Below the pieces are notes generated by a model. That model was not told the DNA's origin. It did no database searches and worked only from the letters and a program-made list of their open reading frames with translations. Below are positions 10,942 to 44,020 of a stretch of DNA of 64,000 nt, piece by piece (within the stretch, counting starts at the first letter, position 1; every line of letters starts with the position of its first letter). Both the position numbers and the translations under genes were made by a program. The DNA comes from an uncultured virus (IMG/VR IMGVR_UViG_3300036800_000376) (Duplodnaviria > Heunggongvirae > Uroviricota > Caudoviricetes), in the IMG/VR virus record IMGVR_UViG_3300036800_000376; one strand, 5' to 3'.

Positions 10942-11232
10942 TCACCGCCGGTCGGGGTCGAATAGCGCCCACGCGAACGCGAGCACGAACCCGATCAGCG
11001 AAAGCGCGGCCGCGTCCTGTCCTGACCACCGTGCGTAGACCTCGAGCGCCACGGCGGCCGCGGTAGCTCCGATCCACAAGCCCATGCCAGCCCAAACGCG
11101 ATAGCGCAGTGGGTGCCGACCGGGTGCGGTCGACGTAGCGTCGGACGGCGATTGGCGCGTAGCCCTACGCACCTCGCGCGCAGGCGCGGCAATGATCACG
11201 AGCACGACGAGCATCGTGGCGATGAGCGCCAT
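10942..11232 (-). CDS. small membrane protein
   Basis: Three hydrophobic segments; TGATG coupling to the upstream gene remnant. Confidence 0.6.
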   Translation of the reverse strand: MALIATMLVVLVIIAAPAREVRRATRQSPSDATSTAPGRHPLRYRVWAGMGLWIGATAAAVALEVYARWSGQDAAALSLIGFVLAFAWALFDPDRR

Positions 11233-12957: not shown

Positions 12958-13408
12958 CTAGCGTGACGATCTCACGGTCCCGGCCAGCGAGCATCGGCAG
13001 CTCCGGGGCGGGCGCGGTGAGCTTGCGCTGCTGCCAGAGCGCGAGCGCGAGCGCTCCGTCCTCGGTGAGCGTCAGCTCCCGCACGACGATCGGTTCCGCC
13101 GGCTGGGCGCGCCACACCAGCCCAGAGTCCGGGAGCCCACCAGCGAACACCCGCTCGTGCGTCGCATCGACCCACCCGTGACGCACGCAGGCAGCGAGCG
13201 TGACCCGCCGCGGGCGGATGTACCGGTAATCGATCGGACCCACCCGCGCCCTGTTCGCTTCTCGATCTTCCTCCTCGGTCCACAGCACCACCCTCGCCCG
13301 CCGCCGCGAGCTGCCGTCATCCCGCGGCCAGAACAGCGGATAGTCGGTGGCGTCGAACTCCTCGACGATCCTCAGCAGGGCGGCTTGAGCGTCAGATGGT
13401 GCTCTCAT
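12958..13408 (-). pseudogene. 5' part of the IS-interrupted hypothetical gene
   Basis: ATGA-coupled to the SNF2 gene; runs into the IS end. Confidence 0.8.
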
Positions 13409-15213
13409 GCGGCGAGCTTCCTTCGACGCTTCTTTTTCAGGACGGCCTCCGCGAGCTTCCTCATGCGGTCACTCACGTCGACGGCCTCGAAGAGCGGGCG
13501 GTCGGGCTCAACGATCGGACGGCTGCCCTGCTCTTTGATGTTCAGGACGTCAGCGACAACCGGGTCAGATCCGACATCGCTGACGAGCATGTAGGAAACG
13601 CTCGGGTTGGTTTGCCCGTCTCGGTGGTAGCGGCCTTCGGCTTGGTCGTGGATGCCTGGTGACCAGTCCAGCTCGCCGAACACCCCGACGCTGCAGACGT
13701 CTTGGAGGCCGTCGAGACCGGTGCCGGATCGCAGGCTCATGATCAGCACGCGGCTCTCAGCGGTCGCGTCAACGAACTCCGCATAGGTCCGCGTGTGCCA
13801 GCGGTGCCGAATCCCTTGGACGGCTTGCTGGAGCTCCTCGCCGCCGATGAATCGTGCGCGGCTGAGTTCTTTCTGCGTGGGGGATTCGGTGCCGGTAAAC
13901 ATCACCGGGTGGTGCTCGGCGAGCCGCGTGAGCCAGATTTCGTACACGTCGCGGTGCCAGCCGAAGAGCACGACTTTCTGTTCGCTCTCGAGCAGCATGT
14001 CCACGAACGCGGCGACGTAGGGCGCTTTCGCTACTCCAGTCGCGCGGCGCATCTGCATGTCGATCTCACCGCTCGCGGTGAAGACCTCCTGGCGATCGTG
14101 GGAGTGCAGGATCGTCTCGGCGAGCGCCGCCGCCCCGCCCTCCTCGAGGAGCCGGTCGAGCTCGCCCTCGTCAGCGTCGACGCGATGGGGGACGCGCACG
14201 ACCTCGGGGAGCTCGCGCCCGACCTCTTTGCGGGTGCGACGCAGGAAGATCCCCTCTGAGCGAAGGTGCGCGCCGAGCGCCTTGGGATCTTTCACGGCCA
14301 GCTTGTCTGACCATTGTGGGGCGCCCGCCCACTCGCGAGCGAACTCCGCTCGCGAGCCGAGTACGTCAGGCGCGATGATCGACAGCACGTTGTGGATCTC
14401 GCCGGCGTAGTTGTAGATCGGTGTTCCCGTCAGACCTAGGCGGACGTGTGCGAGGTCCGCGATCCGCCCGGCCGCCTTGTACTTATCTGACTCGGCGCGG
14501 CGGAGCTCCTGCGCCTCATCAAAGATGACCGTCTTTACCCGGCCGGCGAGGTGATCGACCCATCCGCGGAGCTTGTGGTAGTTGATGATGAGGATGTCCG
14601 GGTCATAACCCCGCATCTCCCGCCGGCGAGCAGGGTCGTACGGCGTCCCGGTGCGGATGATGTGCGCCCGCAACGTCGGCAGCGTCTTGGCGAGCTCCCG
14701 CATCCAGTGATGCGGCAGGTGCGTGGGGCACACCACCAATGCGGGGAGAAGATCAGGGTTCCGCAACACTAGGAGACCACTTAGCGTCTTTCCTAGGCCG
14801 AGCTCGTCCGCGAGTAGTAGCTGCCCGGTCGCGAGCGTGAGGTCGGCGGCGATGAGCTGATATTCGCGGGGCTCGCGGGATGGTGTCAGAGCGCCGGGTA
14901 GGTGCGGGCGATCGCCGCGGAGCAGAGATTCCACCAGGTCTTGCCGTTCCACATAGGCTGCTGTCGCCTCCTCGAGGTGGGTGCGGTCAGCGGTCGAGAT
15001 CTTCATCGGCCAGCGCTGCAGCACCCATTCCAGATCTCGTGCGACCTCGAGCGTGTGCTCGAGTGAGATCCACCCCGACCGGTTCTTATCCGCGCGAGGG
15101 AACAGCCGTTTGAGGCGCATCAGCACGTCAGGCGTAGCGATCACATCCCACACACCACGCTCAAAGGACAGGTCGTCAGGCGGCTTGAAGCGGATCTCGC
15201 CGTAGGTCTTCAA
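13405..15213 (-). CDS. SNF2-family helicase/ATPase
   Basis: LLADELGLGKT, IFDEAQ, GLTGTP, RRTRKEV, GTGLDGLQ, QAEGRYHRDGQ. Confidence 0.9.
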   Translation of the reverse strand: MKTYGEIRFKPPDDLSFERGVWDVIATPDVLMRLKRLFPRADKNRSGWISLEHTLEVARDLEWVLQRWPMKISTADRTHLEEATAAYVERQDLVESLLRGDRPHLPGALTPSREPREYQLIAADLTLATGQLLLADELGLGKTLSGLLVLRNPDLLPALVVCPTHLPHHWMRELAKTLPTLRAHIIRTGTPYDPARRREMRGYDPDILIINYHKLRGWVDHLAGRVKTVIFDEAQELRRAESDKYKAAGRIADLAHVRLGLTGTPIYNYAGEIHNVLSIIAPDVLGSRAEFAREWAGAPQWSDKLAVKDPKALGAHLRSEGIFLRRTRKEVGRELPEVVRVPHRVDADEGELDRLLEEGGAAALAETILHSHDRQEVFTASGEIDMQMRRATGVAKAPYVAAFVDMLLESEQKVVLFGWHRDVYEIWLTRLAEHHPVMFTGTESPTQKELSRARFIGGEELQQAVQGIRHRWHTRTYAEFVDATAESRVLIMSLRSGTGLDGLQDVCSVGVFGELDWSPGIHDQAEGRYHRDGQTNPSVSYMLVSDVGSDPVVADVLNIKEQGSRPIVEPDRPLFEAVDVSDRMRKLAEAVLKKKRRRKLAA

Positions 15214-16189: not shown

Positions 16190-16823
16190 GGGTGAGCTCC
16201 GTGAGGCCTTGCCGGAACGCGGTGGCGCCGCCTCGCGCGGGATGGCGGACGTAAGGGACCCCGGGAAGTAGCCCGCTAGCGATCCGGCCGACCGCCACGA
16301 CCCGCGCCGGGGCGAGCGCGTCGACGAGCTCGGCGAGCAGCATTCGGCCTTGCTCGATCTCCCCAGCGGTGGGGGTTCGGTTGGATCGCGGCTGCCCGGG
16401 CTGGTGGGGGTGCGTGGGCACGGCGTTCCACCGGACCGTGCCCGCGTCTAGCCCGAGCTCGGCCAGGACGCGAGTGACGATCGTGGCGCTCGCCTCGCTA
16501 TATCCCGCCGGGTGGGTACTCGTGCGCCGCTCGGGCGGGAGCTGGCGCTCAGCGGTGAACGCGATGCCGCTGAACCGGCAGCCGAGGTGCCCGGGCGCCT
16601 CCCCCACCAGCAGCAGGCCACAGCCGCCGGCGCGGTCAGCCAGGTGCGCACGTAGGTTCGCTAACCGTTGCGCGGGCGCGCTAGGCCCGGCGTCGAGCCC
16701 GGGGATCCACTCGTGGTACTGATTGCAGGTCGAGCCGATCTCGACGTCGACCAGCCGCTCCAGGAAGCTCTCGAGCTCGCGGGGGAGCACTGTGTCTAGG
16801 GTGCGGGGCTCGGTGATCATCAC
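16182..16823 (-). CDS. uracil-DNA glycosylase superfamily protein
   Basis: LLVGEAPG..G..FSGIAFT, WNAVP, NRTPT, VAVGRIA, RHPA. Confidence 0.88.
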   Translation of the reverse strand: MMITEPRTLDTVLPRELESFLERLVDVEIGSTCNQYHEWIPGLDAGPSAPAQRLANLRAHLADRAGGCGLLLVGEAPGHLGCRFSGIAFTAERQLPPERRTSTHPAGYSEASATIVTRVLAELGLDAGTVRWNAVPTHPHQPGQPRSNRTPTAGEIEQGRMLLAELVDALAPARVVAVGRIASGLLPGVPYVRHPARGGATAFRQGLTELTRD

Positions 16824-17896
16824 GTCTTGCGGCGCCAGTCCTCGCCGGTGACCGGAGTGGGTCGCGAGAGGTCGTGTAGGCGTGATGCGACGCGATCACC
16901 AAACGCGCGGTCCCACTGGGCAACGGGGATGTTGCTCGCACCGATGATCGGGAGGCTGCGTCTGTGGCGACGATCGACGAGGGCTTGCAGCTCGTTACGA
17001 CCCCACTGTCCGAGCGCGTCAGCGCCGAGGTCATCGAGTGCGAGCAGCGGGACGGAGGCCGCGCGATCGAACACGGGACGCACGGGCTCTTTGGTCTCCA
17101 TGTTGCGCTTGGCTTCCTCGAGCAGGTCGCTCACGGTCAGGTACCAGACGTCGGCTTCGTGGCGCTCGATCAGCAGCACGAGCGCGGCGGTGATGAGGTG
17201 TGTCTTCCCGCGACCGGGTGGCCCCACGAGCATCGGCGGCCGCGGGCAATTGGGCGTTCCCCATCGGGCGGCCACAGCGGCGATTTGCTTGAGAGCTGCC
17301 TGGTTGCCGGGGGTAGGAACGACGCTGACCCCCACGAAGCGCTCTGGCAGGCAGGCTCTCTGGCTCTTGACCTGGCGGCGGTAGTCGCGATCGAACTTCA
17401 CTCGCGGCACCCCGAACCCGAACCGGCACGGCTCGTAGTCGCACTCCACGATCCACTGCTCCCCCGTGCGCTCGATGAACCGCAGCATCCCCGGACACCC
17501 CGACTCGTCCCATTCAGCGTGCGGCTTGAATGGGGGGTGCTCATCATCGCCGCTGCCTACGGCCCTCAGCCAACCAGGCTCGGGCGTGATCCGGAACGCG
17601 TTCCGATTCCGTTTCGGCTTTGGCGGCTCGTTGGCGTCATCCGGTGCCGGATCAGGCTCGTTGGCGTCATCCGGTGCCGGATCAGGCTCGCTGGCCGTAT
17701 CGGGTTCGTGATCGGTTGGGGGGGTCGCCTCGGACTTACCTGGCCGGTTTTCCTTGAGCACATCCGCGATCCCGCGGAACGCGCGGCGGCGGCTGTAGGG
17801 GCGCGGCTCGCGCTCGAGCTCGCGATCGGACCCAGGCTCACGGTCGGGATCGGGGTCAGGCTCAGGGTTCGCGGGCATCGTGTTCTCCTCGCTCAT
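16820..17896 (-). CDS. DnaC/IstB-like AAA+ ATPase
   Basis: GPPGRGKT, LALDDLG, LVDRRH..LPIIGASN, DRVASRL, GEDWR. Confidence 0.85.
   Translation of the reverse strand: MSEENTMPANPEPDPDPDREPGSDRELEREPRPYSRRRAFRGIADVLKENRPGKSEATPPTDHEPDTASEPDPAPDDANEPDPAPDDANEPPKPKRNRNAFRITPEPGWLRAVGSGDDEHPPFKPHAEWDESGCPGMLRFIERTGEQWIVECDYEPCRFGFGVPRVKFDRDYRRQVKSQRACLPERFVGVSVVPTPGNQAALKQIAAVAARWGTPNCPRPPMLVGPPGRGKTHLITAALVLLIERHEADVWYLTVSDLLEEAKRNMETKEPVRPVFDRAASVPLLALDDLGADALGQWGRNELQALVDRRHRRSLPIIGASNIPVAQWDRAFGDRVASRLHDLSRPTPVTGEDWRRKT
17625..17690. repeat. 30-bp tandem repeat x2.2 (EPDPAPDDAN)
   Basis: ggctcgttggcgtcatccggtgccggatca repeated exactly. Confidence 0.9.
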
Positions 17897-18939
17897 TTCG
17901 CGCTCTCCACCGGCGTCGCAACGACAGGTCGCCCGAGCCTGCGGGCCTCGTCCAGGTATCCGCCAGCGATCGCGACGACCTCTAGGAGCCCCAGGGACCC
18001 GACGAACCGCTCGATCACCCGCTCATCTGCGCTTCCGCAGTCCAGGAGCACCCGGTGGCCATCACGAACCGTGAGCACCACCCGCCGCGTACCGCCCTGC
18101 GCCGTGTCGTATCGACCCACGACCTCAGACAGCAGGCGTCTCGGCGCTGCCCGCCGTCTCGGCACTGCCCGCCTCGGCGCTGGCTGACATGAGGGGCGCT
18201 CGCGCGGCACAGCGAGCAAGGGCGCGCTCAGGCCCTCCGAGATGCTGGCCAGGAGATCGGCGATATGCGGATCGGCTGCCGCTCGAGCGAGGATCGTCCG
18301 ATCGGCGCTCAGCACCGTGGCGTGTGTGCGACCGAACGCCTTCCCGATGTTGGTCAGGCTGTATCCCTCGCGGCGTAGAGCAGCCATCACAAGCTGTCGC
18401 GCCAGCACTACCGATGCCCGGCGGTCGCGGTCAAACAGGCACTCCGGGGAGATGCGCAGCTCGCCAGCTGCACGGGCGGCGAGGACCGCAGCGGCCTCCT
18501 GGAGGCTCACTCTAAGCACCACCCGTCGCGTCCTGCCGTCCCTTGTGCGATCTCGACCCGTAACCTCAGACAGCAGGCGGCTCGGCACCGTCTGCTGCGA
18601 TAACGCGGGCTGGCCCGAGTGCTCGAGCGGCTCGGCGCCGGCGGGCACCTGGTCGTTCAGACCTTCCGCGATCCTGGTGAGAAGGTCAGCGAGGTGCTGA
18701 TCGGCGGCCGCTCGCGCGAGGATCATGCGATCGGCGTGCAGCACCGTGGCGTGGGAGCGACCGAACGCCTCCCCGATCTCGGTCAGGCTGTATCCCTGCC
18801 GACGCAGCACGGCCATCGTGACCTGGCGAGCGAGCACCACCCGTCCTCGCCGATCGCGGTCAAACAGGCACTCCGGGGAGACGCGCAGTTCCCCGGCCGC
18901 ACGGGCGGCGAGCACCGCTGCTGCCTCCTGGACAATCAC
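17893..18939 (-). CDS. protein with two tandem DnaA C-terminal (domain IV) HTH domains
   Basis: VLARQ..MA.LRR.GYSLT.IG.AFGR.HATVL.A occurs twice, with a 429-bp period. Confidence 0.8.
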   Translation of the reverse strand: MIVQEAAAVLAARAAGELRVSPECLFDRDRRGRVVLARQVTMAVLRRQGYSLTEIGEAFGRSHATVLHADRMILARAAADQHLADLLTRIAEGLNDQVPAGAEPLEHSGQPALSQQTVPSRLLSEVTGRDRTRDGRTRRVVLRVSLQEAAAVLAARAAGELRISPECLFDRDRRASVVLARQLVMAALRREGYSLTNIGKAFGRTHATVLSADRTILARAAADPHIADLLASISEGLSAPLLAVPRERPSCQPAPRRAVPRRRAAPRRLLSEVVGRYDTAQGGTRRVVLTVRDGHRVLLDCGSADERVIERFVGSLGLLEVVAIAGGYLDEARRLGRPVVATPVESAK

Positions 18940-23930: not shown

Positions 23931-24176
23931 TTAGAAGAGCCTCCGTTGCCCGGGCCCGAGCGGGAACCCCTTGACGATGTGCACGGTCCGCCCGTCTCGA
24001 GCCGGGTAGCGAACCTCACCGCGTGGGATGTCCGCGAGCCCGTCGAGCGCCTGGTCGACGTAGGGCTCGGCGTCGCTGGCTGGGGCGGGTAGCCGCTCCC
24101 AGCGCCCGGGGTCGGCGAGCGGCTGCTCCCACCGCACGTAGACACGCTCCTCGAGCACGTTCGCGAGCTGGGTCAT
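23931..24176 (-). CDS. hypothetical protein
   Basis: ATGA overlap with the helicase stop. Confidence 0.5.
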   Translation of the reverse strand: MTQLANVLEERVYVRWEQPLADPGRWERLPAPASDAEPYVDQALDGLADIPRGEVRYPARDGRTVHIVKGFPLGPGQRRLF

Positions 24177-25846
24177 GACGCGATCGCCAGGCGGCGACGG
24201 GCTCGTGCCAGCTCTTTGATTTGGTCGGGATGGTTCGTGGCCAGCGTCGAGACTTGGCGGCGAACCCAGTCCACGGACTCGGTGACAATCTCGACGGGAG
24301 CATCGGCGTCGACGACGCCCACGGCCGCGGCGAGCTCGCGGTGCGCGGTGGCGAGCTGATAGGCGGGGTTGATCAGCCGCCGCAGCTGCGCATAGGTGCT
24401 CAGCAGCGTGAACAGTTCCCCGCGGAGCGATTCGCGCGCGGCCACGGCCGCGCGGATCTCTTGCGGTGAGGGAGGCAGCTTCGGCGTCGAGATCTCGACG
24501 CTCTCCTCGACGGCGCTCAGGCGTGTGGTCGAGGAGAGCACGTCGAGGGTGGGTGGGACGGTCCCGTTGAGCGGTTGTGCGTCAACGGCGCGGCACTTCG
24601 GTCTGCTGCCGCGCTGCCCGCCGAGGAGCGACGGATCCTCCTCGCCGAGCTCGCGAGTGGTGGCAGAGCGGGCGCCGGTGGTGGAGGAGATCCCGCCGAG
24701 AACGTCCAGGCGCTCGGCGTAGCGGATGAGCTGTGGGTCGGCGGGCATGTGCACAGTCGCGGGAAGCCGCGCGTATTTCGCGCGGCCGCGTAGCGCGCGG
24801 CCGGATACCTGGCGGACCATCAGCTCGGTCGACGCGGCGGTCGCCCACACGATCACCCCGAGACGGGGAATGTCGACGCCCTCGGACACCATCCGAACGC
24901 TCACGAGCCATTCGTCGCTGTCCTCGGCGAACGCGGCGATCGCCTTGTGCGCGCGCGGTATGTCGCTCATCGCGAGCACCGGCAGACTGCCGGTGACCTC
25001 GGCGATCAGCTGGTCAACCTCGAGCGCGTGCGGCTGGGAGTCGCATACCACCAGTCCCGCGGCATCGGGCACCTGCTCGCGCATCTTGAGGAGGTCCTCG
25101 TGCGCCGCGGTGAACAGCGACCGCAGGTACGGCTTGCCGGGGTCAAGCGCGGCGCGCAAACGCCGCGGACGAGCGCCAGGGTCGACACGTTCTGAGAACA
25201 TCGCTGCGTGCTGCTCTGCGCCCTCGAGCCAGACGATCGCGCCGTCGTGCGGACGGAAACGCACCGGCCGGCATGCGCCGTCCCTGACCGCCTGCGCGTA
25301 GTCGTACCCGAAGTCCGGAACGCACCGTCCGTCCGCGTCGTAGGTCACGAACGGGATCCGGCCCTCATCGGAGCGGAATGGAGTGCCGGAAAGCATCAGC
25401 CTCACGGTCGCTCCGCCGAACGCGTTGCGGAGCGATTCGCCCCACGCGAGGTCGTCGCCGGCGTGGTGGATCTCGTCGCACACCAGCACCGTCCGACGCT
25501 TCTCGCACGCCACGGCGTATCGCTCGACTCGTTGCGCGACCTGCGCATATGTCGCGCACACGCCGTGCACGTGCTCGGGCCAGCCGGCAAGACCGAAGTC
25601 GGTATCCATCCGGTAGCCAAGGCGAGCGAGCTCGCGCTGCCATTGGTCACGAACGATCACCGATGGGCACACCACGATCAGCTGATCGCACTCCCGGGCG
25701 CTCATCACCCCAGCGACGCCGGCGCCCGCCGCAATGGTTTTCCCGGCGGCTGGGCAGGCGACGAGAAGGAAGTCCGGGCCCGGATGGCACTCAAGGACCC
25801 GCACGAACCGCGCCTGCCAGCTCCGCAGAGCGATGCTTGTCGTCAT
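24173..25846 (-). CDS. SF2 DEAD/DEAH-box helicase (ResIII-like)
   Basis: LRSWQ, CPAAGKT, VCDEIHH, LSGTPFRSD, MVSEGVDIPRL, QVSGRALR. Confidence 0.9.
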   Translation of the reverse strand: MTTSIALRSWQARFVRVLECHPGPDFLLVACPAAGKTIAAGAGVAGVMSARECDQLIVVCPSVIVRDQWQRELARLGYRMDTDFGLAGWPEHVHGVCATYAQVAQRVERYAVACEKRRTVLVCDEIHHAGDDLAWGESLRNAFGGATVRLMLSGTPFRSDEGRIPFVTYDADGRCVPDFGYDYAQAVRDGACRPVRFRPHDGAIVWLEGAEQHAAMFSERVDPGARPRRLRAALDPGKPYLRSLFTAAHEDLLKMREQVPDAAGLVVCDSQPHALEVDQLIAEVTGSLPVLAMSDIPRAHKAIAAFAEDSDEWLVSVRMVSEGVDIPRLGVIVWATAASTELMVRQVSGRALRGRAKYARLPATVHMPADPQLIRYAERLDVLGGISSTTGARSATTRELGEEDPSLLGGQRGSRPKCRAVDAQPLNGTVPPTLDVLSSTTRLSAVEESVEISTPKLPPSPQEIRAAVAARESLRGELFTLLSTYAQLRRLINPAYQLATAHRELAAAVGVVDADAPVEIVTESVDWVRRQVSTLATNHPDQIKELARARRRLAIAS

Positions 25847-26136
25847 CGCTCCACTTCCACGGCGGTGAGATGCTCGTTGGCGAGGGTCGCAAGGACGTCG
25901 CCGTGGCAGGCTTGCGGTGAGCACCAGCACCCGAGCGTCTTGCCGGCGAGCTCGCGCAGGTCCGCGAGCAGCTGCGGCTGGGATTTCAGCCAACGCTCAT
26001 AGCGGGCGATGACTTCCGCACGGTCCCCTTCCTGGCCGACCACGTAAGGGTTGCCCCACTTGCTGGGCCTACCGATGTACACGTCGTACCGGTCGCGCTT
26101 GCAGTGCACGACTGTTGTGAGTGACCGTTCGCTCAT
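25843..26136 (-). CDS. DUF4326-domain protein
   Basis: YDVYIGRPSKWGNPY...L.GKTLGCWCSPQACHGDVL. Confidence 0.88.
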   Translation of the reverse strand: MSERSLTTVVHCKRDRYDVYIGRPSKWGNPYVVGQEGDRAEVIARYERWLKSQPQLLADLRELAGKTLGCWCSPQACHGDVLATLANEHLTAVEVER

Positions 26137-33690: not shown

Positions 33691-33905
33691 CGTGGGACCT
33701 CCGCGCCAGTTTCGTCATTCTGGGCCCATTGACCGCGGCGGCCGCACTCGGGACAGCGCACGTACTCCTCGTAGGCGGGGTCGATCTCCCCGGAGCGCTC
33801 CTCGGGGAAGAGCAGCACGTCCCACTCCTCGTTGCACGCCGAGCACCACACGGTGACGACAACGACCGTCGCCATCTCCTGCGTCTCGTGGGGCGTGGCG
33901 CTCAC
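33687..33905 (-). CDS. small Zn-ribbon protein
   Basis: CSAC...CPECG. Confidence 0.5.
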   Translation of the reverse strand: MSATPHETQEMATVVVVTVWCSACNEEWDVLLFPEERSGEIDPAYEEYVRCPECGRRGQWAQNDETGAEVPR

Positions 33906-34501
33906 GGCTCACCTCCGTCGGTCTCTTCGCGGAACGGGGCGTGCGCCATGATCAGCGCGCGGGAGCGGTGCAGCTGCCCGTCCGCTAGCGCCCAACGCTC
34001 GACGGGGAGGGACTCGTCGTAGACATCGCGCTCGTGCTCGAGCACGAGGGTGTCGAGCGCGAGCGCTACAGACCGCCAGTCGTCATCGTCCACGGCCGGC
34101 TCGGGGATCCGCACGATGTCCTCCCACGCCTCCCCGTCGTCGACCACGGCGTCGACGGGCGCTGCGACCTGGCCAGTGATCTCCTTCAGGAGCCATCCCA
34201 GGGTGTGCGCCGACGCGGCGGCGAGGGTGAGCGCGAGGTTGACCTGATCGATCAGGGCGCGACGGTTGAGCTGCTCGAGTCGGCGTTGCCCGAACCCGGG
34301 TAGGTCGAGCACGAGCGTGAAGAGCGGGGTGCTGCGCAGCGGCTCGGGGCGTTCCTCCAGGATCCGCGCGAGCGTGATCGACCCGTTGCGCATCTGGCGC
34401 CGTAGCTTGGCCTTGTCGCTCCGGAGGCTGTTCGCGTTCCCGAGCGCAGCCATGTTTTGCGCGCGCTTGCGGCTCGTCTCGGTGGGTGTGGAGGTGCTCA
34501 C
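33902..34501 (-). CDS. divergent mIHF-like protein with acidic extension
   Basis: MAALGNANSLRS.KAKLRRQMRNG.ITL..IL...LF.LVLDLPGFG..R. Confidence 0.6.
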   Translation of the reverse strand: MSTSTPTETSRKRAQNMAALGNANSLRSDKAKLRRQMRNGSITLARILEERPEPLRSTPLFTLVLDLPGFGQRRLEQLNRRALIDQVNLALTLAAASAHTLGWLLKEITGQVAAPVDAVVDDGEAWEDIVRIPEPAVDDDDWRSVALALDTLVLEHERDVYDESLPVERWALADGQLHRSRALIMAHAPFREETDGGEP

Positions 34502-35149: not shown

Positions 35150-36073
35150 CTAGAGCTCGATCTGCGGTTCGGGGGTGGTCTCGGCCGGCTGGGCGGTGGC
35201 CTGCTCGACCTGCCGCTCGCCTTGCGCCACACGCTCGGTGAGCCACGTGAAGAACAGCCGCCCGGGCTCACGCGCGAGCTTCTGTGCGGCGAGCAGCGGA
35301 TCCTCATCACGCTCGACGGGTTGGCCGAGCTCGCCGAGCTGCGCGACGATCTCCGCAGGGTCGACTCCGATCGCGTACGCGCTGTCGAATGCCTCGATCA
35401 GCTGGCGCTGCATGGAAGGGCTCAGCGCATACGTATCGTCAGTCCCGCCGGCCTGCGCCATCTCCTCGCTGGTGTAGATGCCAGAGAGCTCCTGCGGGAA
35501 CGCCCTCCGCAGCGCAAGAGCCTCCGCGCACTTCGCGATCATCACATCGGGCATCTTTTTCCACATGAAGTGGAGGCTGCCGCTGGACTCATAGATGGCG
35601 TAGCTCGTGAAGCGCGCGACAGCGACGGTGGCTTCTCGCACGCCGGTCTTCCACACGCCGACCTTCGCGGCGGCCGGCGGGGCAGCGTCGAGCCAAACGT
35701 CGTACCACTCACGATCGGGGCCACACCACAGCGGCGCTGTTCCACCCTCGTATTTGCCGGTGCGCTCCGCGATCAGTCGTAGCCCGTCGATCGCGGTCTG
35801 AACCTTCATGACCTCGCCCCGGTCCCGACCCCGGCCCTCGAACCGGAACACGGCGAAAATCTGGCGGGCGAACGGATTGAGACCGGTGCGCTCGCACTGG
35901 TAGATGAACAGCGCAAGCTCGTCGTCAGTCGCTTCGCGCTCCCTGGGCTTGCAATAGGTGCGCTTGATCAGCTGGACTTGATCGCGCGTGAAGACGCGAG
36001 AGACGATCTCTCCGCTCGAGGTCGGCGCAACGATCGAGTGAACGGGCTCATTCCGGGGCTCGAGCTCGTTCAT
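35150..36073 (-). CDS. bet: phage recombination protein Bet (Red-beta/RecT-like annealase)
   Basis: ATDDELALF..C.RTGLNPF.RQI, TAIDGLR.IAERTG.Y.G, W.KMP.VMIAKCAEALALRRAFP.ELSGIYT.EEM. Confidence 0.93.
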   Translation of the reverse strand: MNELEPRNEPVHSIVAPTSSGEIVSRVFTRDQVQLIKRTYCKPREREATDDELALFIYQCERTGLNPFARQIFAVFRFEGRGRDRGEVMKVQTAIDGLRLIAERTGKYEGGTAPLWCGPDREWYDVWLDAAPPAAAKVGVWKTGVREATVAVARFTSYAIYESSGSLHFMWKKMPDVMIAKCAEALALRRAFPQELSGIYTSEEMAQAGGTDDTYALSPSMQRQLIEAFDSAYAIGVDPAEIVAQLGELGQPVERDEDPLLAAQKLAREPGRLFFTWLTERVAQGERQVEQATAQPAETTPEPQIEL

Positions 36074-36474
36074 CGCCGGGTCCTCGGGCCGGTGCTGCGG
36101 GGTGAGTGGAGGCTGTGGGTGGTGCCGTCGAGCGTCCATTCCAGCGCCCGGCGTTCCAGGCCGCCGGCCTTCCAGCGGTGCTCGAGCGGCTTGAGGCCAA
36201 GCGCGTGGAGCTCGGCGGTGAGCAGCTCGTAGCGCTCGGCGGTTTCCGCGAACGCGGCGATTTGGGCGTTCTCGACGCCGGCGGGGAGGTTCACACCGAA
36301 CAGCCGGGTGGCGAGCGCGCGGCGGGTTCGCGTGGCGAGCTCGGGGTTCCCTCCGGAGCTGCTCGCGGCGATCAGGGCGTCGCGTTCAGCGGTGAGACGA
36401 TCGATTTCCGCGTCGATCCCGGCGAGCGCGGCACCAACGCTGTCGCCGTCTGTGGTTATGAGTGCAACGTGCAT
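36070..36474 (-). CDS. hypothetical protein, first gene of the long minus-strand operon
   Basis: ATGA coupling to bet; AT-rich upstream region. Confidence 0.55.
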   Translation of the reverse strand: MHVALITTDGDSVGAALAGIDAEIDRLTAERDALIAASSSGGNPELATRTRRALATRLFGVNLPAGVENAQIAAFAETAERYELLTAELHALGLKPLEHRWKAGGLERRALEWTLDGTTHSLHSPRSTGPRTRR

Positions 36475-36499
36475 GCCTGTTCCCTTACCCTCGTGTTTG

Positions 36500-36605
36500 A
36501 CACCGGTATACGTTAGCAAGTTCGCGCTCCAATACAAGCATAAATATTTACGTGTTCTGATGCGCGTATATGCGCACCGGTATATGCGCCGGACTGCGCG
36601 CAGGT
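36500..36605. promoter_or_regulatory. AT-rich control region with short palindromes
   Basis: TAAATATTTA, GCGTATATGC and two CACCGGTATA copies. Confidence 0.45.
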
Positions 36606-36623
36606 CGTGGGGAGATGCATCCC

Positions 36624-37874
36624 TTAGCTCCTCGTGATCACGGGCCGAGAGGGGCGCGCCAGACGCACGCGCTCCTCGCCCGGAGCGGAGCGGAACAACG
36701 ACGATGAAGCCGAAGGCGAAGCCGGGCGTGAGGAAGCGAAGAGGGGCGCGGGCCGGCGAGCAAGTTTGGGAACAGGCTTGCCACTCGGAGCTATGAACTC
36801 GCCCGGCCCCTCTTCACTGGCGAGTCTAGATGCCGTCAACATCATGCGGGTGTCGGCGTTCAGCTCCCGCCCAAGCAGCCACCATCGCCAGCGGCGAAGA
36901 TCCTCAGCGAGCCGCTCATCGCGCGGTAGGAGGTTGCACATCGGCTCGCCGTGCTGAGCGCGCGAGCGCGATCCCAGCGATCCGACCTTGTACGCGCCAA
37001 GTGCCCAAACGCGGCCGTCCCCCTCCCCCTTGACCACGCTCTCGAGCCCCCACCGCTCGGCGAGGAACTCGCGCAGCAGTCCCGCTTCGCGCGTGGGCAC
37101 GATGAACCCGTCGGTGTTGATGTAGCGCACGTCGAACAGCTCGACGACCTCGTGCGCGATCGCGTGCAGCGTGTGCATGAGATAGCCCCACAGTTCGGGC
37201 GCGAGGAAGCGGTTGTAGGTTGACACCTTCGACACGCGCCCGTCGGACCACTGCGTCCGCTCCCGAGCGCGCACCACACCGATGATCGTGTTGCGCGTCT
37301 CCTTGAGCGTCGCGAGCTCTGCGGTCCGTAAGAACCGGATGAGTCCTTGGCCGAACACGCGCCGCTGCGGGTTGAAACGCAGGTCCAGGCTCGCGGGGGC
37401 GTAGAGCTGGAAGTAGGCGGCCTTGATATCGACGTAGGTGAGCTCGCCGGCGGACTCGCGCTCGAAGCGCAGAGGCGGGTTGAGATCGAGCATCGGCCAC
37501 GTCTCCCGCGACCAGGGCACGCGCTTGTAACCCATCCACTTAGAGCGCGCCGTCTTGCGGTGCGCGCACTGCTGCTCCCACAGCATCCGGATGTACGGCC
37601 GGGCGGTCTCGGTCGGGGTGACCGGCCACACGCTGTGGTCGATCATCTTCGTGCGCCCGATCGTGTCCGAGATCGTCCGGGTCCCGAACACCAGGCGCTG
37701 ATAGTCCCGATAGACGTGCTCGCGCATGAACGCCTTGTAGTCGAACTCCTCACGCGCGAGCGCGTACGGGGACTCGAGCACCATCCGGTGGAGCTCCGCA
37801 CGCAGCCGATCCGGCGACTCGACGGGCATCCCGCCAGGGCGCGCCTCGACGAGCGTCCCGCCAGGGCCGCTCAT
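36624..37874 (-). CDS. compact family-B-like DNA polymerase palm domain, no exonuclease domain
   Basis: Motif A YVDIKAAY, motif B KETRNTIIG, motif C YINTDGF, in order. Confidence 0.65.
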   Translation of the reverse strand: MSGPGGTLVEARPGGMPVESPDRLRAELHRMVLESPYALAREEFDYKAFMREHVYRDYQRLVFGTRTISDTIGRTKMIDHSVWPVTPTETARPYIRMLWEQQCAHRKTARSKWMGYKRVPWSRETWPMLDLNPPLRFERESAGELTYVDIKAAYFQLYAPASLDLRFNPQRRVFGQGLIRFLRTAELATLKETRNTIIGVVRARERTQWSDGRVSKVSTYNRFLAPELWGYLMHTLHAIAHEVVELFDVRYINTDGFIVPTREAGLLREFLAERWGLESVVKGEGDGRVWALGAYKVGSLGSRSRAQHGEPMCNLLPRDERLAEDLRRWRWWLLGRELNADTRMMLTASRLASEEGPGEFIAPSGKPVPKLARRPAPLFASSRPASPSASSSLFRSAPGEERVRLARPSRPVITRS

Positions 37875-38287
37875 ACGGAATCCCCCACGTACAGAACCCA
37901 GCCGTCCTCGTCGGGTTCCCACCGCAGCGCCCAGATCCCCGGCGTGACGTTGCGCTCGAAGTCGCTGAGGATCGGCTGGAGCGTCGGGTAGACGCCACGC
38001 CAGTTGTCCGGGCGGATCTGGCTCGGGTTGCCGTAGATCCGCGAGCGATCCTCCGGCTCCTCTTCGGGCGGCTCCTCAGGCGGCGGTGGCGGGGCCGGCG
38101 GCTCAGGTGGCGCGGGCGGCTCCGGTGGCGGGGCCGGCGGCTCAGGTGGCGCGGGCGGCTCCGGTGGCGCGGGCGGCGGAGTCGGCGGAACCTCCGGAGG
38201 CGGCAGGGGCGCGCGACCGGTAGCCCGTCGGAACGTGTTGCGAATCGAGCGGCCGAATCGGCGGAAGAACCCGCCCCGGCTAGCCAA
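37871..38287 (-). CDS. Pro-rich protein coupled to the polymerase-like gene
   Basis: GGAG then TTG start; ATGA overlap; basic N-terminus, PPEPPA linker, Trp/Tyr-rich C-terminal domain. Confidence 0.65.
   Translation of the reverse strand: MASRGGFFRRFGRSIRNTFRRATGRAPLPPPEVPPTPPPAPPEPPAPPEPPAPPPEPPAPPEPPAPPPPPEEPPEEEPEDRSRIYGNPSQIRPDNWRGVYPTLQPILSDFERNVTPGIWALRWEPDEDGWVLYVGDSV
38085..38162. repeat. 39-bp tandem repeat x2 encoding the Pro linker
   Basis: ggtggcggggccggcggctcaggtggcgcgggcggctcc repeated. Confidence 0.85.
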
Positions 38288-38512
38288 GACGACCAGCTCC
38301 CCGGTTCACGATCGGCCATGCTGTGGCGATCGCAAATACGGACGCGAATTGACGAACGCACTCGTAAACAGCCGCGAGATGCGCTACAGTTTCGACCAGG
38401 CCCTGAGAAAGCCTTATAGAGTTTTTGGAATCCCGTCCGGTGGCTGCCGAGGCGGGTTTCCGCGTTAATGGGGGTGGTCTCACTTAGGGAGGGCCCCTCC
38501 TATATCTTCGGG

Positions 38513-38749
38513 TCACGCCTGTGCGCTCACCTCCGGCGGGTTTGGACGCGCTGCGCGACTGACGTGCTGTCGTATCGCCTCGCGCGCCACGGCACTCACG
38601 GACTTGCCCTCGGCGAGCGCCTGCTCTTCGAGCGCTTGACGCTCAGCCGCCGCGATCTTGGCCGTCACGAGAACCAGCCGGTTGCCCCGGTTGTACTTCG
38701 CCGGGGGCGGTCGATCTGAGTGGACGGTTGTGGCGGTTATGACGCTCAT
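38513..38749 (-). CDS. CopG/ribbon-helix-helix protein
   Basis: VTAKI...ERQALEEQA.AEGKSVSAVAREAI. Confidence 0.65.
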   Translation of the reverse strand: MSVITATTVHSDRPPPAKYNRGNRLVLVTAKIAAAERQALEEQALAEGKSVSAVAREAIRQHVSRAARPNPPEVSAQA

Positions 38750-39021
38750 GCCGAGGCGGCAAGTATCGGTATACCGTCGGACGGACCGGCGGAATAGCTG
38801 GACCTCCGACGTCCTGCACACCCGCTGTTTGCGGGCTCAGCGGAGCAGCTTACCACATCGGTCTACAGATGTTTGACCGACGTAATCGGTGGTCTAACGA
38901 GTCCGCTCGGGCGCTCTCGCGCAAAAGGGAGCAGACTGACGCGCGGCATTGTCACAGCCCTCTCGGACGGAACTTTCCCGCACTTTGCGTACGTAAAGTC
39001 CGCTAACCCGGCGGGGCCGCG

Positions 39022-39483
39022 CTACCCGTTGACGTGCGGGTCGCGTAGACCCGTGAGCGCCCAGAACGCGTGACCGCGTGCAGGTACCCGGCCTCGAGCT
39101 CGCGGGCGACGGGGAGACGGCAGGAACCGCATCGCGTAGGACAGCAGCGACTCGGCGACCAGCTGGCGGCCAGCGTCGCTGACGGGGCACCGTGCCTGCT
39201 CGAGCGCCCACGTCCAGCAGTTCGCCTCACGCTCGAGGATCGCCGCGCTACGGCCGCGGGCGACATGGTGCGCGACCTCGTGCAGCGCCACCAGGTACGA
39301 GCCCTCGTCCGCAGCCGGCGGGCAGGCGATCACCCGGACCCTGGCGGCGCCGGCGCGAGCCGCGAACGCCGACTTCCCCAAGCCGCGGCCTCTCACGACA
39401 CCATGCGCTTCGCAGAGCTCCAAGATATGCGCCTCAAGCTGTGCGCCTTTGAGGCTAGCCCGTTGTGGATGCGTTCCGTCCAT
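39022..39483 (-). CDS. small HExxH metalloprotease-like protein
   Basis: YLVALHEVAHH...EREANCWTWA. Confidence 0.6.
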   Translation of the reverse strand: MDGTHPQRASLKGAQLEAHILELCEAHGVVRGRGLGKSAFAARAGAARVRVIACPPAADEGSYLVALHEVAHHVARGRSAAILEREANCWTWALEQARCPVSDAGRQLVAESLLSYAMRFLPSPRRPRARGRVPARGHAFWALTGLRDPHVNG

Positions 39484-42605: not shown

Positions 42606-42962
42606 ATGCCGCCCCTGTTCCGTCGCCAGCGCCAATCCGCCAAGCCCAACACCGCAGCCCCAAGGCAGGCGCCCCCACCGCCAGCGGGCAGGACCCAAGC
42701 GGAGGGGTCGCCCAAGACCGCATCTCTACCGTGCCCCGCGTGTGGCGCTGGGCACCTACTCGCGCACGTGGATCTCCCGCTCACGCTCAGTGTCCACTTG
42801 ACGCACGAGGGGCAAGTCCGCCCCGCGGAAGTCTTGACCACCAAGCGCGAGCTCCAGCGCGCAGCACAAGAACACTTCAAGCCGCTCGGCGACGACGTGC
42901 TCCTGACCTGCTCCACCTGCGACTACCGGCGCACTGTGGGCGAATTTCGAGGTGCAACATGA
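42606..42962 (+). CDS. Zn-ribbon hypothetical protein
   Basis: CPACG...CSTCD. Confidence 0.5.
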   Translation: MPPLFRRQRQSAKPNTAAPRQAPPPPAGRTQAEGSPKTASLPCPACGAGHLLAHVDLPLTLSVHLTHEGQVRPAEVLTTKRELQRAAQEHFKPLGDDVLLTCSTCDYRRTVGEFRGAT

Positions 42963-44020
42963 GGCGCGCCCCGGCGACAGTCCGAGCGACCGCGCTCGCG
43001 GCCGCGGCCACGGCCGTTCTCGCCGGCTGCGGGATCGCGGCCTCAACCACGAGCAGTCAGACCGCGAGCTCGAGCGCGTCCCGAGATTCCGGGGCGATAG
43101 TCGATCCGCGCTCGAGCGCGGCGCTGCAGCTCGCGACCGAGCCCAACGCGGGCGGTAACCGGCCGTTCCTGGCGATGATCGCCGGAGCTCACCGCAGCAT
43201 CGATATGACGATGTACGAGCTCGCCGATCCGCAGGTGGAGGCGGCGCTCGCCGCGGCCGCGAAGCGTGGGATGACGGTGCGGGTCCTGCTCAACGGCGGC
43301 TACTACAGCGAGCGTGAGAGCACGAACAGCACGGCCTACGGCTACCTCTCCTCGCACGGGGTGGCGGTGCGCTACACGCCGGCGTTCTTCGCGCTCACAC
43401 ACCAGAAGACCATCACGATCGACGGGCGGGTCTCGGCGATCATGACGCTGAACCTCACCAGCGAGTACTACGCCACCACCCGCGACTTCGCGGTCCTCGA
43501 CTCACAGCCAGCGGACGTCACCGCGATCGAGGGCGCGTTCAATGCCGACTGGCGCGACCAGCGAGTCACCCCGTCCGCCGGCGCCGGGGATCTCGTGTGG
43601 TCCCCCGGCTCCTCCACCGAGCTCCTCCATCTGATCGCGTCCGCCCGCAGCTCGCTGCAAATCGAGAACGAGGAGATGGCCGACCCCGCCATCACCAGCG
43701 CGCTGTGCGCCGCCGCCCGCCGCGGCGTCAAGGTCCAGATCGCGATGACCTACGAGTCCGACTGGAGCTCCGCGTTCTCCGAGCTCACCGGATGCGGCGC
43801 ACAGGTCCGCGTCTACCACGGGGAGCACCCGATCTACATTCACGCCAAGGTGATCCTCGTCGATAACCGGACGGCGTTCCTGGGATCGGAGAACTTCTCC
43901 CGAGGCTCGCTCGACAGCAACCGCGAGCTCGGGATCGTAACCTCAGCACCGGGCATCGTTCATTCGCTCGCCGGGACCCTCACTAGCGACTTCTCGGGTG
44001 CCGCACCCCCCGAACGCTGA
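42959..44020 (+). CDS. phospholipase D-family lipoprotein
   Basis: LAGC lipobox; two HKD motifs HQKTITID and HAKVILVD...GSEN. Confidence 0.88.
   Translation: MRRAPATVRATALAAAATAVLAGCGIAASTTSSQTASSSASRDSGAIVDPRSSAALQLATEPNAGGNRPFLAMIAGAHRSIDMTMYELADPQVEAALAAAAKRGMTVRVLLNGGYYSERESTNSTAYGYLSSHGVAVRYTPAFFALTHQKTITIDGRVSAIMTLNLTSEYYATTRDFAVLDSQPADVTAIEGAFNADWRDQRVTPSAGAGDLVWSPGSSTELLHLIASARSSLQIENEEMADPAITSALCAAARRGVKVQIAMTYESDWSSAFSELTGCGAQVRVYHGEHPIYIHAKVILVDNRTAFLGSENFSRGSLDSNRELGIVTSAPGIVHSLAGTLTSDFSGAAPPER

Follow-up and report, generated by a model that had tools for sequence, protein, structure and literature searches.

The window analyzed here is a stretch of 64,000 nucleotides (nt) from an uncultured virus (IMG/VR record IMGVR_UViG_3300036800_000376), and this report concerns three consecutive genes on its minus strand, which is the strand of all window features given below unless otherwise stated. 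In the direction in which they are read, these are a ribbon-helix-helix (RHH)-like gene of the CopG/Arc type (38513..38749), a gene for a protein of 138 amino acids (aa) that we call P0002 (37871..38287), and a gene for a 416-aa protein, P0001 (36624..37874), whose translation, family membership and predicted fold point to a minimal family-B-type DNA polymerase. We tentatively propose that this polymerase is protein-primed and that P0002 serves as its primer. A first-pass annotation, made from the letters of the window, had described an open reading frame (ORF) of 416 aa with three ordered polymerase motifs, a small gene joined to it by an ATGA overlap, about 225 bp of noncoding DNA and a CopG-like gene upstream. 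The ORF and its motifs are borne out by the translation and the motif coordinates, the overlap is confirmed at 37871-37874, and the spacer lies at 38288-38512. The CopG-like gene is present where it had been placed, although its assignment to the RHH class is weak, with a Pfam match that falls below the cut-off.

Motif A of P0001, YVDIKAAY, occupies residues 147-154 (37413..37436), and the codon of its aspartate, D149, is at 37428-37430. Motif B, KETRNTIIG, spans residues 191-199 (37278..37304) with the spacing Kx3Nx3G. Motif C, YINTDGF, covers residues 251-257 (37104..37124), with the codon of D255 at 37110-37112, and has Asn where the canonical DTD has its first Asp. Motif A of family-B DNA polymerases (PolBs) is typically of the form Dx2SLYPS. 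The core shared with the rest of the family comprises residues ~21-335, and residues 340-416 (36624..36857) are a clade-specific C-terminal extension, in which a long helix comes to its end and gives way to a disordered tail. The reading frame is open further upstream, to a GTG at 37922, and from there would encode 432 aa.

When 1.84 billion representative sequences were searched exhaustively with HMMER, 541 proteins had E≤1e-3, among them 267 with E≤1e-10 and 25 with E≤1e-30, where each protein stands for a cluster at 50% identity. Most family members are 290-330 aa long, and the common core is ~300 aa. A further homologue search, seeded with alignment A2, returned 10 proteins, all of which were already in the set. 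To assess conservation we used an alignment of 99 sequences, which comprises P0001, four close homologues and 94 proteins chosen from the 150 that the HMMER search listed; the other 56 were omitted by eye as fragments or much longer proteins. D149 and D255 are found in 99 of 99 sequences, and no other column of the alignment is invariant. In motif B, K191 is conserved in 73 of the 99, R194 in 82, N195 in 64 and G199 in 94, and in motif C, T254 is conserved in 71 and G256 in 79, while the first Asp of DTD is an Asp in only four. Columns conserved in at least 90% of sequences are G64, P134, G177, G199, P226 and A240. The family-wide consensus of the three motifs reads YVD[IL]xxAY, [KR]xxR[NH]xxxG and xTD[GA], and, given conservation of this kind in the aligned sequences, the motifs of P0001 are not a product of chance. 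The Tyr that precedes Gly in a Kx3NSxYG-type motif B is absent from the family.

Searches of P0001 against Pfam, PHROGs, NCBIfam and PADLOC gave no match, and none of the 99 members matches a relevant Pfam, PHROG or NCBIfam model, so the family is left unannotated by these four curated libraries. Two closely related loci, L002 and L003, were the only ones returned by a metagenome scan. In comparison with the homologues in L002, dN/dS is 0.37 for the polymerase gene (0.33 for the core alone), 0.34-0.35 for the P0002 gene and 0.45 for the RHH gene; thus, all three genes are under purifying selection.

A model of P0001 computed with AlphaFold2 (AF2) from the 99-sequence alignment has a predicted local distance difference test (pLDDT) score of 85.3 and a predicted template modeling (pTM) score of 0.79. 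When this model was compared with the PDB by using Foldseek, there were 41 matches with E≤1e-3, and among the matches listed all were PolBs. A structural search of BFVD gave as its top match a 315-aa viral protein (E 9e-19), which from its length we infer to be ORF21 of Thermus phage phiKo, a homologue discussed below. Lower in the BFVD results are PolBs and herpesvirus helicase-primase-associated proteins, the latter of which we take to be inactivated PolBs. In the Atlas, the nearest clusters are hypothetical proteins of 280-314 aa with a viral label, and the structural neighbors include PolB clusters of archaeal and viral origin. The three motifs occupy suitable positions in the model: motif A ends a strand (141-150) that is followed by a helix (153-158), motif B lies on a short fingers helix (191-202), and motif C forms a beta-turn-beta element (strands 251-253 and 256-260). 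P0001 is thus predicted to have the palm and fingers of a PolB, together with the two invariant aspartates. The first-pass annotation had made its proposal depend on a palm fold and on conserved catalytic aspartates, and both were found.

Other parts of a typical PolB are reduced or missing. About 110 residues precede the palm, and E89 is the sole column before residue 140 that is acidic in at least 60 of the 99 sequences; consequently, exonuclease motifs I-III are not conserved. Pfam detected no exonuclease or polymerase domain in any of the 99 aligned sequences, P0001 included, which agrees with the earlier statement that P0001 has no recognizable 3'-5' exonuclease domain. Some of the fold alignments run into the exonuclease region of phi29 polymerase (to residue 56) and of archaeal enzymes, so the N-terminal part of P0001, as modeled, may be a remnant of such a domain. 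Between D149 of motif A and a helix at 184 are ~30 residues with two short strands. A beta-hairpin directly follows the fingers helix (205-218), and from its place in the model it may correspond to the element called TPR2. The modeled thumb is essentially one long helix (320-354).

P0002 begins at a TTG (38287) with GGAG 9 nt upstream, and its stop codon overlaps the ATG of the polymerase gene. It has the architecture that had been described for it, namely, a basic N-terminus, a Pro-rich linker with tandem repeats and a C-terminal domain rich in Trp and Tyr, although the C-terminal domain is modeled poorly. The N-terminus contains a predicted helix (residues 10-23). The linker, (E)PPAPPEPPAPPP, is encoded by a 39-nt tandem repeat present in 2.5 copies with 96% matches (38084..38179). 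The C-terminal domain (residues 96-136) is predicted to be beta-alpha-beta-beta, and the protein ends in WVLYVGDSV. The AF2 model of P0002 as a whole has a pLDDT of 60. Homologues of P0002 are P0163, P0164, L002:7511-7960 and L003:306-776. In the close clade (L002, L003 and P0163, the last of which was paired with polymerase P0003 because the longest contig of each is 17,218 nt) the partner is always present, and its C-terminal 60 residues are 80-90% identical.

The N-terminus of P0002 differs from that of its relatives. Four of them have as their start codon a more distal, conserved ATG (MA[A/V]EPP) whose aligned position in the window, 38317..38319, is out of frame with the P0002 ORF, and a TGA at 38306-38308 closes the P0002 frame upstream of its TTG start. 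Either the assembly has an indel here or the N-terminus of P0002 is truly shorter. In the run that is probably the source, Logan contigs are interrupted within the repeat that encodes the Pro linker. Short contigs from the soil metagenome of a different study are 100% identical to parts of 36000-39200, and the element is therefore not confined to one sample; contigs of this second run do not cover 38247-38353. We also observed that a second frame is open for 203 codons across the partner gene (window 37750-38361) and is open alike in L002 and L003. It is probably an effect of GC-rich, Pro-rich composition, not a gene.

Among 50,697 phage records searched by tblastn, the sole match to P0001 was ORF21 of Thermus phage phiKo (E 3e-8; AYJ74696.1, a hypothetical protein of 315 aa), and phiKo alone was again recovered when the family members P0016 and P0162 were used as queries. 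Direct comparison of P0001 and ORF21 gave a BLASTP E-value of 1e-15, with 29% identity over 196 residues. phiKo belongs to Tectiviridae and has a linear genome of 11,129 bp, whose ends (1-21 and 11109-11129) are 21-nt inverted repeats that are 90% complementary. None of the 23 phiKo ORFs that were scanned matches a polymerase family in Pfam (the genome has 26, and three of ~46-57 aa were skipped). The available portion of the original description of phiKo does not name a polymerase, and the accessible part of a 2026 preprint mentions, with no further detail, that a protospacer lies 'within the DNA polymerase gene' of this phage. Known tectiviruses use protein-primed replication with a PolB, according to the portions consulted of two articles (PMC11348598, PMC11161782), and on this basis ORF21 is presumably the phiKo replicase. 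Because phiKo is linear with inverted termini and ORF21 is its sole polymerase-like gene, protein priming is plausible for the family.

A small ORF also precedes ORF21 (phiKo region 1557-2731). This ORF22 encodes 72 aa, is acidic and has no Pro linker; it ends 8 nt before ORF21, and GAGGAG lies between the two. Its C-terminus (…IVYDEETDTWEVYVDYE) resembles that of P0002 (…LRWEPDEDGWVLYVGDSV). The similarity of the two proteins is weak, with a BLASTP E-value of 0.18 and an hhalign E-value of 0.01 at 4% probability. In a search of 230 six-frame phiKo ORFs with a profile of the P0002 C-terminal domain, ORF22 ranked first with a nonsignificant E-value of 0.12.

A second genome scan found only one additional related locus, L004, which is an 8.1-kb contig (1-8131) from an Actinomycetes metagenome-assembled genome. 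Its polymerase is 42% identical to a member of alignment A6, and the polymerase gene starts with a GTG that shares bases with the TGA stop codon of an Arg-rich ORF of 132 aa (GTGA). A profile of the P0002 C-terminal domain and ORF22 fails to detect this Arg-rich ORF. Thus, a small coupled upstream ORF recurs in three distant lineages with sequence similarity that is weak or absent, and the idea that the partner is kept beside polymerase homologues is clear for the close clade, whereas in phiKo and L004 it applies by position only. The L004 contig looks phage-like; read in order, it has genes for a protein with a PG_binding_1 domain and for one resembling Imm5, then, after a masked stretch, a weak PD-(D/E)XK-like gene, the Arg-rich ORF, the polymerase and what may be part of a methylase gene. 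The contigs of 20 further family clusters reach at most 18,507 nt; this length and one of 18,477 nt come from separate records. Contigs of at most 18.5 kb fit small genomes, though metagenome contigs are generally short. PLSDB plasmids gave no match by tblastn, and the related-locus searches found nothing for A1 in genome or viral contigs and nothing for P0020, P0030, A5 or A6 in viral contigs.

Upstream of P0002, the RHH-like gene encodes 78 aa from its ATG. The supporting profile matches are Pfam RHH_1 (E 0.0022, 18.3 bits against a cut-off of 20.5) and an Arc-like PHROG (E 0.002), and a homologue resides at the same position in L002 (7073-7324). Judging from its sequence, the protein is probably a regulator. 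The 225-bp spacer that separates it from P0002 (38288..38512) contains a hairpin after the RHH stop codon and blocks common to L002 and L003. In comparison with L002 the spacer shows 66% identity over 184 aligned pairs, and the flanking coding DNA shows 64-75%. The hairpin sequence differs between the window and L002, and both versions are able to pair. The spacer is likely a promoter or leader. Neither a consensus sigma-70 promoter nor a terminator was found in it, and an Rfam search of the intergenic region gave one sub-threshold chance match, which lies inside the RHH coding region.

The window, part of a mobile element of soil bacteria, has a GC content of 66-70%. We recognized no capsid or portal gene in it, and its terminase-family matches are only secondary matches of FtsK/SpoIIIE-type and HerA-like ATPases. 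Other genes in the window encode an FtsK/SpoIIIE-type translocase, an ArdC-like protein, a Mom-like protein, an IS110 transposase, a HerA-like ATPase, SNF2 and DEAD-type helicases, a DUF5131 protein, a UDG-like protein and an ECF (extracytoplasmic function) sigma factor. A gene for a protein with two helix-turn-helix stretches resembling DnaA domain IV adjoins a DnaC/IstB-like ATPase gene (16820..18939), and these genes are likely the element's initiator and loader pair. Comparison of 69 window ORFs with NCBIfam revealed no other DNA polymerase and no Tap or Tpg.

The explanation that we favor, with a probability of about 0.42, is that P0001 is an exonuclease-less, protein-primed PolB-type polymerase, encoded in the element's replication-recombination operon, that starts DNA synthesis on P0002 at the termini of a linear element. 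P0001 would be an active enzyme related to the phi29 and PRD1 polymerases but free of proofreading, with a vestigial N-terminal domain, a palm, two-helix fingers and a rudimentary thumb, and would possibly be among the smallest polymerases with a replicative role. D149 and D255 would coordinate the pair of catalytic metal ions, and the incoming deoxynucleoside triphosphate would be bound by K191, R194 and N195 of the fingers helix. P0001 and P0002 would be made from one translationally coupled message, probably under control of the RHH protein. P0002 would bind the polymerase through its compact C-terminal domain, which would supply the hydroxyl of a conserved Tyr, Thr or Ser as primer, with Y85, Y100, T102, S108, Y133 and S137 as candidates; DNA would be gripped by the basic helix at its N-terminus. 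Together the two proteins would initiate synthesis at the ends of the linear element or patch them, and bulk replication of the element would begin internally with the DnaA-domain-IV-like and DnaC-like proteins and host enzymes. A protein-priming or end-patching module had already been suggested by the first-pass annotation, and the PolB fold, the loss of the exonuclease, the coupled gene and the phiKo relative partly support that suggestion, whereas a relation to Tap and Tpg finds no support among NCBIfam models (0 of 99 members).

A number of observations weigh against protein priming by P0002. The ~30 residues between motif A and the fingers appear too few for a TPR1 like that of phi29, so that this subdomain, the hallmark contact with the terminal protein, seems to be absent. 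The candidate primer proteins, at 72-156 aa, are far smaller than known terminal proteins; the similarity between P0002 and ORF22 is not significant, and that to the L004 ORF is undetectable. In L002, the partner and polymerase genes are separated by a 40-nt gap and do not overlap. None of the 99 family members matches Pfam DNA_pol_B or DNA_pol_B_2 at E≤0.01, and hhalign of the family profile with phi29 polymerase gave no signal (E 0.54); with no PolB sequence model matching, membership in PolB rests on the predicted fold and short motifs. No terminus was found within the window, and the contig ends lie outside it; the 86,330-nt contig has a further 22 kb. The P0001 clade comprises eight proteins, 63-100% identical, on contigs of up to 86,330, 78,090, 41,968 and 30,387 nt, and these large contigs, in combination with the DnaA-domain-IV-like, DnaC-like, RecT, FtsK/SpoIIIE-type and ArdC-like genes, mean that the element could be circular.

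A more specific form of the protein-priming proposal, which we regard as unlikely as a whole, is that the window belongs to a linear replicon of soil actinobacterial type that is capped without Tap and Tpg by a ~300-aa PolB core and the 138-aa primer protein, whose priming domain would be the ~55-aa beta-alpha-beta-beta unit, and that the same module replicates phiKo-like tectiviruses. If true, the 541 clusters would represent a new, widespread class of protein-primed replication and would come with a new class of miniature terminal proteins.

Among the other explanations, a rather doubtful but serious one retains the same small PolB and dispenses with protein priming. P0001 would be an accessory polymerase of a recombination-replication module, acting by de novo initiation, in place of a primase and in the manner of primer-independent PolBs, or by extending 3' ends annealed by RecT, and P0002 would be a tether or processivity subunit that replaces the thumb, with its basic helix on DNA and its C-terminal domain, beyond the Pro linker, docked on the polymerase. 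The genes downstream of the polymerase are consistent with such a role. Directly downstream is a 155-aa protein (36070..36537; L002:9336-9863 in the same place), for which Pfam, PHROG, PADLOC and NCBIfam gave no match, and this is followed by a RecT/Bet-type single-strand annealing protein (35150..36139; Pfam RecT 5.7e-28, phrog_2780 2e-58, TIGR01913 4.3e-29; homologue at L002:10679-11608). The polymerase gene is thus two genes upstream of RecT, in a codirectional run that also includes a 199-aa actinobacterial IHF-like protein (33902..34501; E 3e-6, below the cut-off) and the HerA-like gene. The order of RHH gene, partner, polymerase, 155-aa protein and, later, RecT is kept in L002, where the polymerase is 63% identical. 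In L004, the PD-(D/E)XK-like gene (E 0.0017) lies two genes upstream of the polymerase. No primase was recognized in the window, the thumb is down to one helix, and the partners of the window's clade and of L004 are strongly basic. ORF22 of phiKo, however, is acidic, and phiKo has no other polymerase-like gene, so that the family member there must copy a whole genome.

A less probable proposal assigns the central role to the C-terminal tail: P0001 would be an error-prone repair or translesion polymerase tethered to the host beta sliding clamp through xxxLF sites. The tail is disordered beyond the helix (pLDDT <50) and specific to the clade, with a column occupancy of ~5-18 of the 99 sequences, as most of the family has no tail. 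In P0001 it carries GKPVP and two xxxLF sites, PAPLF at 378 and SSSLF at 393. All eight tails of the close homologues have GKPVP and two or three LF sites, in repeats that resemble xxxLF[RH][SA]xPGxxRVR. The bacterial clamp-binding consensus is QxxLF, and the SSSLF of P0001 may be compared with QSSLF in Streptomyces PolA2, as given in the portion of PMC12926913 available to us. The lack of proofreading in P0001 also suits an error-prone enzyme. The Gln of QxxLF, however, occurs in none of the 19 tail LF sites, and the tail evolves fast (pN of 0.36, compared with 0.20 in the core), so clamp binding can be offered only as a conjecture. Moreover, the rest of the family is tailless, which would make the tail a late addition and not the basis of the family's function.

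Two further explanations are both highly improbable. In the first, which the first-pass annotation had raised, P0001 and P0002 would be a nucleotide-polymerizing defense or anti-defense pair. Genes resembling those of defense systems do occur elsewhere in the window, including a DrmC-like PLD-family protein (42731..44020, plus strand), an SNF2 helicase resembling DpdE, ZorD and DrmD (13405..15213), a PbeA-like ResIII/DEAD helicase (24173..25993) and the ArdC- and Mom-like genes, and the PLD-family, SNF2 and ResIII/DEAD genes are possible defense or anti-defense cargo. The idea nonetheless gained no support: none of the three proteins (P0001, P0002 and the RHH protein) matches a PADLOC model at E≤1e-3, the operon is one of RecT, IHF-like and HerA-like genes, the synteny retained in L002 is with RecT and replication genes and not with defense genes, and the phiKo homologue resides inside an 11-kb virus genome. 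In the second, P0001 would be a catalytically dead PolB relic with a structural role, for which one might cite herpesvirus 'DNA helicase/primase complex-associated protein' models at BFVD ranks 2, 5 and 9, an HSV-1 helicase-primase complex chain at rank 9 of another structural search and the missing first Asp of DTD, but the sole invariant columns among 99 diverse members are precisely the two expected metal-binding aspartates, motif B is kept, and absence of the first Asp does not preclude activity in several PolBs, according to the excerpted text of PMC11161782.

Should P0001 be active, it would show that a family-B polymerase works with a ~300-residue core, about half the size of phi29 polymerase, and without proofreading, and phiKo and hundreds of uncultured relatives would gain the replicase that is missing from their annotation. 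ORF21 of phiKo, if active, would be a very small heat-stable polymerase and a potential reagent. The recurring partner provides a handle on how so reduced an enzyme starts synthesis or holds DNA, whether as a miniature terminal protein or as a thumb acting in trans. An active P0001 would also be a candidate end-replication system of actinobacterial mobile elements that is unrelated to Tap and Tpg.

What is new is a stand-alone PolB core of ~300 aa in a prokaryotic setting with a separate small partner; PolBs without an exonuclease are themselves already known. Our search of the literature on minimal, truncated or exonuclease-less PolBs found no paper that describes the P0001 family, and the literature on phiKo and tectivirus PolBs likewise offered no description of it beyond the single phrase on the phiKo 'DNA polymerase gene'. 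The portions consulted of three surveys of bacterial and phage polymerases (PMC12926913, PMC11348598, PMC7544198) describe no stand-alone form.

P0001 shares the motif order A-B-C with the protein-primed PolBs of phi29 (gp2, with gp3), PRD1 and Bam35. The gene arrangement also recalls phi29, in which terminal-protein gene 3 adjoins polymerase gene 2, just as a small gene is located directly upstream of the polymerase here. The family also reaches into the tectiviruses, the group of PRD1 and Bam35: in phiKo, with its inverted termini, one of its members is the sole gene that resembles a polymerase. P0001 differs from phi29-type enzymes in being about half the size or less (~300-aa core compared with 572 aa) and in having unconserved exonuclease motifs, no apparent room for TPR1 and no DNA_pol_B_2 match, and the candidate primers have only 72-156 aa. 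Another PolB of mobile elements is piPolB of pipolins, which Redrejo-Rodriguez et al. are said to have reported in 2017; it reportedly needs no pre-made primer and retains a full exonuclease domain, which by description distinguishes it from P0001. The closest known relative, ORF21 of phiKo, is a true homologue with a small ORF directly upstream, but it has 315 aa and no C-terminal tail, and it resides in an 11-kb virus genome instead of a large element.

Exonuclease-less derivatives of protein-primed PolBs have been described in TP-vOTU-PALM of mavirus and in pPolB-S1H of polinton-like viruses (PLVs) and transpovirons (Krupovic et al. 2024, PMC11161782, the parts available). Like P0001, these proteins have, according to the same text, lost the exonuclease, kept the palm motifs and lack the first Asp of DTD, and they are nevertheless taken to be active; piPolB is also stated there to lack this Asp. 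Unlike P0001, the mavirus and PLV proteins are described in that source as large fusions of terminal protein and vOTU protease that contain TPR1 and TPR2 and belong to eukaryotic viruses. Compared with them by description, P0001 is stand-alone, would have a prokaryotic host and has its putative primer in a separate gene. In the Streptomyces Tap/Tpg system, as outlined in the accessible portion of PMC5449611, a polymerizing protein, Tap, adds nucleotides to a small terminal protein and so fills in the ends of linear replicons that start from an internal origin, and Tap is stated in that portion to have no polymerase motifs. Compared by models, P0001 is distinct from Tap, in that none of the 99 family members matches any NCBIfam model at E≤0.01. 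The resemblance between the two systems would lie in their proposed function, the patching of the ends of linear actinobacterial replicons.

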